This document shows, piece by piece, positions 19,185-21,075 of a stretch of 64,000 bases of DNA (positions within the stretch are counted from its first letter, which is position 1; every line of letters begins with the position of its first letter). Position numbers and translations under genes: made by a program. This stretch comes from Escherichia phage WPEC6. The stretch lies in the sequence record PV763039.1; one strand, written 5' to 3'. The notes below the pieces were generated by a model, which saw only the letters and a list, made by a program, of their open reading frames with translations, did no database searches and was not told the DNA's origin.

Positions 19185-19589
19185 TTATTGAAGTTTAAGT
19201 GAACCACGAAGACGTTTCTCTTGCTGATCACGGATATATTGTGGAACCTCGTGAATTGAATCATTACCGTGCCTATTTTCAACAACTAAAGAGATAACTT
19301 GATAACCAAACTCTTCAGCAAGAGCTAGATAAGGTTTAAGTTCTTTCTCTGTGGTTGAAGTATTAGAAACAATAATCTTGTTAAGATTAGATGCCATAGC
19401 ATCACGAACAATACCCTGACACCATGCGTGTGCTTTACCTACATTTTCTGGCTTCCAATCGTAAACACCACTCTCTGTGTAATGATATTGATCTGCCTCA
19501 CAGATAGGCCAATAACCTTCAGAAATAATTTCTGCTACTGTAGATTTACCAGCACCTGAAACACCACGTAAAATGATAAGTTGTTTCAT
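19185..19589 (-). CDS. polynucleotide 5-prime-hydroxyl kinase (T4 Pnk kinase-domain-like)
   Basis: Walker A GVSGAGKST; recalled similarity to T4 Pnk kinase domain; no fused phosphatase domain. Confidence 0.75.
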   Translation of the reverse strand: MKQLIILRGVSGAGKSTVAEIISEGYWPICEADQYHYTESGVYDWKPENVGKAHAWCQGIVRDAMASNLNKIIVSNTSTTEKELKPYLALAEEFGYQVISLVVENRHGNDSIHEVPQYIRDQQEKRLRGSLKLQ

Positions 19590-20522
19590 TTATCCTCCAA
19601 AAAAGTTTTCGATTTTTTCACGTCGCTCTTGCTGATTTAAAGCAGCCCATTGAATCTTCGTAAAATTATTTCGAATCCATTCTAACAAAGCGTAATATTC
19701 TTCGTCAACCATTTGTTTGGCATTTTTTGGATTATCCCAAATCAGATCCCACTTTTTATCTCCACCGCGCATAAGAAACTTCTTAGTAAGATAGTGTGGT
19801 GATTTAATTTTTAAAAGTAAGTTGAACGGATAGTTTGTTTCACGAACTACAAACCCTTCGTGTTTACAATGTTTAGACATTTCAACAACATCTGAAAACT
19901 TAACCATTGGATGAACTTCAGGACGCTTAAATTTGGTGACAGAAGCAATTCCATCAAGAGCACCTTCAGGTAACATAAAACTTGTCCCATCAGGATTTTG
20001 AATTCTGGCACCAATTAAGTATGCACCTGGTTCTTCTTCGACAATATGCGGATCAGAAGGATCACAGATTTCAAAAAGGAAAGTTGCTTTTGCACTCTCT
20101 GTCCATTTGATGAAATGTTCTATGTCATCACACTCTGAAACAATATGATTCTTTGCAATACTTGCAAAATCTGATTCAAGGCTTCCTGTTGTCGATACAA
20201 TAAGTTGACCTTTATATACACCTACAGAGGCCATAAAACCATTTACTTTACGAACCACATCTACAAGTTCATCCGCTGGTAGATCTGTGCCATTCTCAAA
20301 ACGATTAAAAATCTTAGTGAAAGGCCAAATAACAACATTGTCATCAGCATCAACAACGATTCCGCGACATTCTAGAAGACGAGAATCAATGCTCCATAAG
20401 TTATCCCAGAAAACTTTGTTCTTATACTTAAGAACAGATAGACCAGAATACTCTCCTTCTTTATATGTTTTCTTATGAACTAAACCTTTTTCAACCAAAT
20501 CGTCGCAATTAAATTTAGCCAC
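19590..20522 (-). CDS. RNA ligase (T4 Rnl1-like)
   Basis: LECRGI, motif I RKVNG, motif IV EGFVVRE, motif V LLLKIK; recalled similarity to T4 RNA ligase 1. Confidence 0.8.
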   Translation of the reverse strand: MAKFNCDDLVEKGLVHKKTYKEGEYSGLSVLKYKNKVFWDNLWSIDSRLLECRGIVVDADDNVVIWPFTKIFNRFENGTDLPADELVDVVRKVNGFMASVGVYKGQLIVSTTGSLESDFASIAKNHIVSECDDIEHFIKWTESAKATFLFEICDPSDPHIVEEEPGAYLIGARIQNPDGTSFMLPEGALDGIASVTKFKRPEVHPMVKFSDVVEMSKHCKHEGFVVRETNYPFNLLLKIKSPHYLTKKFLMRGGDKKWDLIWDNPKNAKQMVDEEYYALLEWIRNNFTKIQWAALNQQERREKIENFFGG

Positions 20523-20523
20523 A

Positions 20524-21075
20524 TTATTCTCCTTTGATTATTTTGTGATGGTCTACAGTCACGATATCTCGTTTACTCATCATAGAAATTATCTCATCAA
20601 AATGCAAGATTTTTCCGTGTGCATCCCAACCCACATCTAACATTTTACCATAAGCTTCATCAGGGAAAGATCCGTGGGAATGCCCGTGTAGCATGATTGA
20701 TCCACGACCTTGTTTATTCCAGGAGGCCATAGGGTAATGGCTTAAGACGAAGAACAGCTTCTGATATTTCACTTCGTCATAATACACCACTTCTCCATAC
20801 TCTGCAAGCACTTCTTGGTGTTTGCTGTAGTCATGGTTCCCAACACAGTAGGTGATATCTCCTTGGAGACGGGAAGCAATTTTACGGGTATCTTCTTCAG
20901 TTCCGAAACAGAAGTCGCCCAAATGCCACATCTTAACACCAGGAGTAGTAGCACATTTGTTCCATGCTTCGATCAAGGCTTCTGTCATGTGGTCCATATC
21001 TTCCCACGGACGATATTCAGGAGCAAACTCTCGAATACGTTTATGCATAAAATGCAAATCGCTTGTAATAAACAT
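20524..21075 (-). CDS. calcineurin-like metallophosphoesterase
   Basis: SDLH, HLGDF, GNHD, HGHSHG metal-binding motifs. Confidence 0.7.
   Translation of the reverse strand: MFITSDLHFMHKRIREFAPEYRPWEDMDHMTEALIEAWNKCATTPGVKMWHLGDFCFGTEEDTRKIASRLQGDITYCVGNHDYSKHQEVLAEYGEVVYYDEVKYQKLFFVLSHYPMASWNKQGRGSIMLHGHSHGSFPDEAYGKMLDVGWDAHGKILHFDEIISMMSKRDIVTVDHHKIIKGE

Follow-up and report, generated by a model that had tools for sequence, protein, structure and literature searches.

How might a phage mend RNA that a host nuclease has cut? The question is raised by three adjacent genes in a 64,000-nucleotide stretch of DNA from Escherichia phage WPEC6 (sequence record PV763039.1), the whole of which is referred to here as the window. 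A first-pass annotation had placed at 19185-21075 a Pnk-like kinase, an Rnl1-like ligase and a calcineurin-type metallophosphoesterase (MPE), and had proposed that they heal tRNA broken by a host anticodon nuclease. Three minus-strand open reading frames (ORFs) lie at exactly these positions, and all three family assignments agree with our Pfam and PHROG scans (Table 1). The reading that we favor, and consider likely as a whole, mechanism included, is that the trio forms a split RNA heal-and-seal module, extended by an upstream gene encoding a cREC protein. That the module repairs RNA seems highly probable from the families, motifs and gene linkage of its members.

The annotation had the MPE following the ligase, which is correct in plus-strand coordinates, but in the order of transcription the genes run MPE, ligase, kinase. 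The MPE stop codon is followed by two bases and then by the GTG start codon of the ligase, with an AGGAG 6 bases upstream of the GTG, and the kinase ATG comes directly after the ligase stop codon TAA. On the upstream side, the MPE start codon and the stop codon of a phrog_839 gene overlap in the sequence TAATG. Between about 24.3 kb and a terminator at 15228-15205 every gene lies on one strand, tightly packed. A promoter and terminator scan found no other convincing minus-strand terminator, so that the cassette belongs to a long transcription unit rather than to a private operon; promoter-like sites were at background level (41 seen versus 34 expected). Within 14500-25400 no Rfam family reached its gathering score, so that no structured RNA was seen near the cassette. 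GC skew changes sign at about 24000-25000 and 43000-44000, coinciding with the switches of coding strand, and the cassette falls in the minus-strand block. Because the cassette sits in such a densely packed phage transcription unit, adjacency alone is weak proof that its genes are linked.

To ask whether the linkage is conserved, 80 IMG/VR viral loci were picked solely for the presence of a ligase relative (41-88% identity) and potential partners were counted within 6 kb. The kinase was present in 73 of the 80 loci, an MPE of the same family in 66 and the cREC protein in 10. When the ligases were clustered at 55% identity, 23 of 25 clusters retained the MPE and 19 retained both partners. The gene orders varied: mpe-lig-kin was found in 27 loci, kin-lig-mpe in 21, mpe-lig-cREC-kin in 6 and lig-mpe in 6, with others besides, and Vibrio phage Chloris, outside the 80-locus set, has lig-kin-mpe. 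The kinase abuts the ligase in most loci (median gap 0 nt), and the MPE abuts it (gap of at most 100 nt) in 32 of the 66 loci that have an MPE. Conservation across the 80 loci and 25 clusters shows that linkage of kinase, ligase and MPE exceeds chance.

Fusions of the kinase to the ligase point the same way. In 11 IMG/VR loci of one phage clade (within L058-L074) the two are joined in proteins of 421-432 aa; the 432-aa fusion of L061 contains AAA_33 and RNA_lig_T4_1. A metagenome-assembled genome of the Cardiobacteriaceae encodes a 493-aa kinase-ligase fusion followed directly by the same type of MPE, in a locus whose other genes look cellular. Linkage that persists through at least five gene orders, together with kinase-ligase fusions in phages and in bacteria, strongly suggests that the three genes are one functional RNA-repair unit, and upholds the annotation on this point.

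The trio is also found in Vequintavirus FV3 and in Pseudomonas Pakpunavirus, and relatives of the ligase are present in 607 phage records of GenBank, among them those of the well-studied groups Vequintavirus, Phapecoctavirus, phi92-like and Pseudomonas Pakpunavirus. The module is thus much commoner than the T4 arrangement implies. WPEC6 is itself a Phapecoctavirus. The 2.5 kb around its cassette are 99-100% identical to Phapecoctavirus Escherichia phages (phAPEC8-like myophages of about 150 kb) and at least 80% identical to sequences in 121 GenBank phage records. Gene order around the cassette is collinear with phage Schickermooser, whose record labels the trio 'putative polynucleotide kinase', 'putative RNA ligase' and 'putative phosphoesterase or phosphohydrolase'. 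Phage WPEC1 (PV659873.1, L167) is 100% identical over the 2.5-kb query. Its MazG-like and RdgC genes lie on the other strand, after the tRNA cluster, unlike those of the window (15000-18000) and of Schickermooser, which are directly downstream of the DNA ligase gene; this reflects either a rearrangement or an assembly difference.

The kinase matched AAA_33 (E 2.7e-10) and the 'polynucleotide kinase' family phrog_505 (E 8e-8). A profile built from 24 sequences matched T4 Pnk (1ly1/1ltq, E ~1e-8), Capnocytophaga Pnkp1 (4xrp, E 1.7e-8), the CthPnk kinase (4gp7, E 3e-7, 129 residues aligned) and PSTK, all of which are enzymes that act on polynucleotides or tRNA. When the kinase was aligned to T4 Pnkp with hhalign (probability 98%, E 1.6e-13), the match was limited to T4 residues 1-154, the kinase domain. 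This and its length of 134 aa bear out the earlier remark that the fused HAD phosphatase is missing, and a tblastn search of the whole window gave no homologue of the T4 HAD (DxDxT) domain (best E 0.7). All 24 homologues share the P-loop (G9-T17) and D33 without change, and D33 aligns with the T4 general base D35. The protein is predicted to be a stand-alone, T4-Pnk-like polynucleotide 5'-kinase.

The ligase covers the full 227-position model of PF09511 (RNA_lig_T4_1; E 3.8e-15, 56.8 bits against a cut-off of 28.3) and matches phrog_562 (E 3e-70). Its AlphaFold model, made with a 30-sequence alignment (pLDDT 92), has helices across residues 242-307 and matches the fold of an adenylyltransferase with a C-terminal helical domain. 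The top Foldseek matches were the ligase domains of fungal Trl1 (6n0v, 6n0t, 9qw7; E ~1e-12, TM 0.61-0.66), and T4 Rnl1 (5tt6, 2c5u, 9do4) was also matched, the two groups together giving E ~1e-12 and TM 0.60-0.66; archaeal Rnl3, Rnl2, Rnl5 and DNA ligases scored more poorly than either. An hhalign comparison with T4 Rnl1 (probability 96%, E 1e-9, about 20% identity) aligned K92 with the adenylylated T4 K99, and R53, K70, F72, G95 and E151 with T4 R54, K75, F77, G102 and E159. E222, G223, K238 and K240 correspond to T4 E227, G228, K240 and K242. We take the essential residues of T4 Rnl1 to be R54, K75, F77, K99, G102, K119, E159, E227, G228, K240 and K242, a list reportedly due to Wang, Ho and Shuman (2003); ten of the eleven are kept, all of them invariant or nearly so in 30 homologues. 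The score against the T4 RnlA equivalog model TIGR02308 (NCBIfam) is 24.1 bits, far under the cut-off of 242, and the protein is therefore a member of the Rnl1 family but not an orthologue of T4 RnlA. By family and predicted fold, it is an Rnl1/Trl1-type RNA ligase.

The nearest cellular relative of the phage ligase is found in Leptolyngbyaceae, as one domain of a chromosomal kinase-MPE-ligase protein of 712 aa (L183:4768-6906, Leptolyngbya sp. PCC 7375, JH993797.1; similar in L170-L201). That ligase domain is Rnl1-type (PF09511), whereas the kinase and phosphatase domains resemble those of CthPnkp (4j6o E 2.5e-24; 4gp6 E 3.5e-11). The protein scores 181 bits against TIGR04075, for which the cut-off is 750, and an RtcB gene lies 1.6 kb downstream. 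Its domains suggest a variant of Pnkp in which the ligase module has been exchanged.

The third protein matches Pfam Metallophos (E 2.8e-5, 25.1 bits against a cut-off of 21.5), Metallophos_2 slightly below its 27-bit cut-off (E 1.3e-5, 25.7 bits) and the 'phosphoesterase' family phrog_547 (E 5e-56), and is annotated as COG4186 in the GenBank entry for Schickermooser. The metal-ligand motifs DxH (D6, H8), GD (G53, D54) and GNH (G79, N80, H81) are invariant in 32-34 homologues, as are H113, GHxH (H132, H134) and the family-specific H11; R22 is invariant in a 32-sequence alignment. All fold matches of its AlphaFold model (pLDDT 95) are MPEs. The best, far ahead of the others, is Aquifex aq_1665 (1xm7, TM 0.72), a protein of uncharacterized function, followed by Mre11, MJ0936, LpxH and a Pseudomonas putida nuclease MPE; lambda-phosphatase ranks 33rd (TM 0.41). 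Searched against solved structures, the family profile matched only 1xm7 (E 2e-23), and neither lambda-phosphatase (1g5b) nor the CthPnkp phosphatase (4j6o) was matched at E <= 1. Motif II reads LGDF, without the GDxxDRG of the phosphoprotein-phosphatase/lambda-phosphatase clade. Motifs and modeled fold place the protein in the aq_1665 clade of the binuclear (calcineurin-like) metallophosphoesterase superfamily, and not with the lambda-phosphatase type. No fusion of the MPE to any other domain was seen among 159 COG4186-type MPE ORFs (median 190 aa). An apparent 504-aa MPE-ligase fusion in L014 was rejected when translation revealed an in-frame stop that separates two genes.

Table 1. Features of the window discussed in the text
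Feature	Position	Strand	Basis or remarks
Binuclear metallophosphoesterase (MPE), 183 aa	21075..20524	minus	Pfam, PHROG, AlphaFold, fold match
Rnl1/Trl1-like ATP-dependent RNA ligase, 310 aa, GTG start	20522..19590	minus	PF09511, phrog_562, fold match
Stand-alone P-loop polynucleotide 5'-kinase-like protein, 134 aa	19589..19185	minus	AAA_33, phrog_505
cREC protein, 118 aa	21947..21591	minus	PF20274
phrog_839 protein, 118 aa; module membership uncertain	21431..21075	minus	phrog_839 E 7e-47
Very acidic ORF (E/D-rich), 47 aa; module membership uncertain	21581..21438	minus	ORF; annotated CDS in relatives
Lambda-phosphatase homologue, 247 aa	35381-36124	plus	phrog_246 'NinI-like'; 1g5b E 5.5e-27
ATP-dependent DNA ligase	17315-18442		PF01068 E 1.7e-9
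tRNA cluster, 11 genes	25702-27627		
Sir2-family (NAD-dependent) gene	42047-42862	plus	

The annotation assigned the healing of 2',3' ends to the MPE. Since a cREC protein and a lambda-phosphatase homologue are encoded by the same phage, the MPE is only one of three candidates for this activity, although a plausible one. Both of the other genes had been overlooked. The cREC gene is three genes upstream of the MPE in the same tightly spaced run, and its product matches PF20274 (cREC_REC; E 1.6e-13, 51.6 bits against a cut-off of 27), with D8, D9, D52, D54, S91 and K98, a receiver-type acidic pocket, invariant in 9 homologues. In seven sister loci (L008-L012, L018 and Vequintavirus FV3) cREC lies between ligase and kinase, and in L020 and FV3 it comes directly after the ligase. 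This distribution suggests a lineage-specific accessory of the module. The family was defined by Iyer et al. (2021), who pointed out its operonic links to RNA ligases and predicted that it processes cyclic ADP-ribose (cADPR) or 2',3'-cyclic phosphates (PMC7824862).

The lambda-phosphatase homologue retains the motifs GDLHG, GDLTDRG and GNHE. A further match of this homologue is to phrog_8238, a phage 'RNA ligase' profile of 737 positions: it aligns with the phosphatase segment, and the N-terminus of the profile matches the cassette kinase. In Vibrio phage Chloris a relative is encoded two genes upstream of the ligase. RNA 2',3'-cyclic phosphodiesterase activity has been demonstrated for the lambda-phosphatase clade (PMC2190708), and the WPEC6 homologue is a possible redundant RNA 3'-end healer.

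Two small genes separate cREC from the MPE. The phrog_839 protein has no Pfam match even at E <= 1, and a precomputed 'T4_Y16D' label on its homologue in an Aeromonas phage was not reproduced on rescan. Only in the nearest relatives (L006, L007, L086) does its gene adjoin the module, and it is near the ligase in L075, a distant ligase locus. A 118-aa protein that neighbors the MPE in L004 was considered as a relative and proved unrelated on comparison. The 47-aa acidic ORF has no family match in profile scans; its composition recalls small DNA-mimic or inhibitor proteins.

The tRNA cluster, 4.6 kb from the cassette, includes genes for Met (two), Arg(tct), Ser, Asn, Thr(tgt), Gly, Gln, Pro and Ile, and none for tRNA-Lys. 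Its 11th gene (26399-26483, plus strand) scores 39 bits with Rfam and was not called by ARAGORN; tRNA-Tyr occupies the matching position in WPEC1. The Sir2-family gene of the window is 20 kb from the cassette. In 11 sister IMG/VR loci and FV3 (L008-L016, L018, L020, L202) the module has a Sir2 gene 0-2 kb downstream, in most of them directly after cREC or the kinase. Other NAD-salvage or NAD-using genes that neighbor the module in relatives encode PRPP synthetase, NAMPT/NAPRTase and Macro proteins. Such genes of NAD+ salvage or ADP-ribose metabolism adjoin the module or a lone MPE in the unrelated phages Chloris (L002), Pakpunavirus 20Sep416 (L203) and Aeromonas phage TS3 (L003). This neighborhood suggests a counter-defense gene island.

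Based on these results, repair by the module could proceed in four steps. A metal-independent host RNase, such as an anticodon nuclease or another defense or toxin RNase, would cut tRNA or other RNA and leave a break bounded by a 2',3'-cyclic phosphate and a 5'-OH. The MPE would open the cyclic phosphate and remove the 3' phosphate to yield a 3'-OH, with cREC as a possible helper, back-up or redundant activity. The P-loop kinase, whose general base is probably D33, would then phosphorylate the 5'-OH from an NTP, and the ligase would adenylylate itself on K92, activate the 5'-phosphate and seal the break. Because the module has both a kinase and a phosphoesterase, its targets would be nucleases whose cuts end in a 2',3'-cyclic phosphate and a 5'-OH. 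Toprim tRNases such as P2 OLD leave 5'-phosphate and 3'-OH ends, which ligases join without healing (PMC12445682). On balance we favor the MPE as the principal 3'-end healer, and we judge it fairly probable, by analogy, that tRNA cut by defense nucleases is the physiological substrate. Repair of tRNA-Lys by T4 Pnkp and Rnl1 against PrrC is a precedent (T4 record notes), and it is from the likeness to T4 that we infer a PrrC/RloC-type adversary; bacterial Pnkp and Pnkp1-Rnl-Hen1 are precedents for RNA repair (PMC2190708, PMC4411300).

Several observations weigh against this heal-and-seal reading. Two concern the kinase. We take T4 Pnk R38 and R126 to be the acceptor- and NTP-binding arginines, roles reportedly established by Wang, Lima and Shuman (2002). 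In the hhalign alignment T4 R38 falls on H36 and T4 R126 on G108, with R106 two positions off; this lid arginine ('ENRHG') is not kept across the family and is absent from its 'YG' subclade. The ligase has T112, a threonine invariant in the family, where T4 has K119. The clade with the kinase-ligase fusion has no phosphoesterase recognizable by Pfam or PHROGs among its neighbors within 6 kb, where homing/HNH endonucleases, thioredoxin, a membrane protein, proteins without assignment and, nearby, a DNA ligase are encoded. When 80 loci were selected instead for the MPE family, the ligase was within 6 kb in only 35, and in the 45 others no neighbor family recurred in more than 4 loci after clustering; hence the MPE family has, or also has, another role. 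Literature and structure searches returned no characterized aq_1665-clade member with a known substrate, and the same phage appears to encode two rival candidates for 3'-end healing. Literature searches also found no expression, biochemical or genetic data on the cassette of this phage group, and no experimental paper on a split cassette or on the Phapecoctavirus/phAPEC8 RNA ligase.

Much of this evidence would also fit a module in which kinase and ligase repair RNA while the 3' end is healed by cREC, by the lambda-phosphatase homologue or by both. The adjacent MPE would then degrade defense signals derived from cyclic nucleotides or ADP-ribose, or trim nucleic-acid ends. Such a role would agree with the MPE loci that lack a ligase or any recurrent partner, with an uncharacterized nearest structure followed by folds such as Mre11, LpxH and the P. 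putida nuclease, and with a motif II 'GDF' that lacks the 'DRG' of the lambda-phosphatase clade, for which the cyclic phosphodiesterase activity is documented. It would also agree with cREC inserted between ligase and kinase in seven sister loci and with the NAD and ADP-ribose genes that adjoin the module in relatives. What speaks for the MPE is its constancy: given the ligase, an aq_1665-type MPE is present in 66 of 80 loci, compared with 10 for cREC and 3 for a lambda-phosphatase-type MPE. Its linkage to the ligase, which it abuts in nearly half of those 66 loci, survives several rearrangements, and in the cellular-looking Cardiobacteriaceae locus it immediately follows the kinase-ligase fusion. 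We therefore regard a module without the MPE as healer as unlikely.

Healing of DNA ends is a second role to consider, since T4 Pnkp is active on DNA as well as RNA. Kinase and MPE would chiefly process 5'-OH and 3'-phosphate ends for the downstream DNA ligase, as in mammalian PNKP or the DNA role of T4 Pnkp. The DNA ligase gene shares the transcription unit of the cassette, 750 bp downstream of it; 32 of the 80 ligase-centered loci have a homologue within 6 kb, and in L061 one lies 2.3 kb from the kinase-ligase fusion. However, any such cluster would be expected to contain a DNA ligase, as a gene of replication, while all the kinase fusions that we found join the RNA ligase and none a DNA ligase, and it is the RNA ligase that the kinase abuts in most loci; this makes a primary role in DNA very improbable. 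Still harder to credit is that the ligase gene has been retained to serve in structure or morphogenesis, as T4 gp63 does in attaching tail fibers, and that its neighbors are unrelated early genes. The idea comes from the label 'RNA ligase and tail fiber protein attachment catalyst', which PHROG and GenBank entries have inherited from T4 gp63. No catalytic residue of the ligase varies among 30 homologues, the gene is in an early/nucleotide-metabolism block and not among the structural genes, and the conserved coupling and fusion to a polynucleotide kinase would be left unexplained.

The split heal-and-seal module may also be more unusual than its T4-like logic suggests, although we consider this doubtful. 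The aq_1665-type MPE and cREC could be two uncharacterized classes of RNA 3'-end healer that act in sequence, for example if cREC opened the 2',3'-cyclic phosphate and the MPE then removed the monoester. Alternatively, the Trl1-like ligase could seal 2'-phosphate ends, in which case NAD-dependent enzymes would strip the junction 2'-phosphate; a phage Sir2 gene adjoins the module in sister phages. Either would amount to a fourth distinct heal-and-seal pathway, carried by hundreds of phages against metal-independent immune tRNases.

Defense by tRNA cutting is an active field (PrrC, RloC, PARIS, P2 OLD, retrons, Cas13), and the only experimentally studied phage RNA-repair counter-measures found in our literature searches were T4 Pnkp and Rnl1. 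The module bears on the function of a large uncharacterized MPE family, on the prediction made for cREC and on which host nucleases are neutralized. To a specialist the finding will be unsurprising, with the genes already annotated, yet it is real, widespread and timely.

The closest comparison is with T4 Pnkp (pseT) and Rnl1 (rnlA), which have the same logic of 5'-kinase, 3'-healing and ligase and belong to the same kinase and ligase families; like WPEC6, T4 infects E. coli and has tRNAs of its own. The T4 kinase, however, is fused to a HAD-type (DxDxT) phosphatase, whereas the cassette kinase stands alone with an aq_1665-clade MPE in that place. T4 Rnl1 is 374 aa long against 310 aa for the cassette ligase, to which it is about 20% identical, and the T4 genes are separated by alc and pseT.1-3, whereas the cassette genes abut.

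The likeness to bacterial Pnkp drawn in the first-pass annotation holds for the three superfamilies, P-loop kinase, binuclear MPE and nucleotidyltransferase ligase, which Clostridium thermocellum Pnkp (TIGR04075) shares with the cassette, but not for their subtypes. CthPnkp is one polypeptide, whereas the cassette has three ORFs, each with its own stop and start codons. Its MPE is of the lambda-phosphatase type, which the aq_1665-clade profile of the cassette MPE does not match at E <= 1. Pnkp ligases are of a different type from the Rnl1 type, and no CthPnkp ligase chain was among the PDB matches of the Rnl1/Trl1-like cassette ligase. In two relatives no methyltransferase that might be a Hen1 partner is annotated within about 10 kb of the cassette, a result that comes from the annotations and not from a dedicated Hen1 search; the WPEC1 record calls no methyltransferases besides two labeled 'DNA methyltransferase', at distances of about 12 kb and 14 kb from the cassette. 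The Pnkp1-Rnl-Hen1 system of Capnocytophaga gingivalis is also split, with the ligase separate from the end healer, but Pnkp1, a homologue of T4 Pnkp, differs from the cassette kinase in having a HAD-type phosphatase fused to it, the Rnl resembles the Pnkp ligase domain, and the system requires Hen1 (PMC4411300).

Fungal and plant Trl1, whose ligase domains are the top fold matches of the cassette ligase, likewise heals and seals with a kinase and a ligase. It is a single polypeptide, and its 2H phosphodiesterase healer leaves a 2'-phosphate that is later removed by Tpt1; no match to 2H or Tpt1 turned up among the scanned window ORFs, though no search was dedicated to them. Essentially the same class as the cassette is found in the phage RNA-repair systems, cRec-linked and with calcineurin-like phosphatases, that Iyer, Anantharaman, Krishnan, Burroughs and Aravind described in 2021 (PMC7824862). 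That survey was computational only and dealt with jumbo phages, whereas the cassette is from a 150-kb coliphage, and in our sample the aq_1665-type MPE is not rare but the dominant partner of this ligase family. The class as such was thus already outlined (PMC7824862) and its genes are routinely annotated. Taken together, the module resembles T4 Pnkp and Rnl1, Pnkp-Hen1, Pnkp1-Rnl-Hen1 and Trl1 in logic but is a member of none. Across these lineages four different phosphoesterase folds fill the 3'-healing slot, and the simplest description of the sequences would be that the 3'-end healing enzyme has been replaced by a non-orthologous one while the core of kinase and ligase was conserved.

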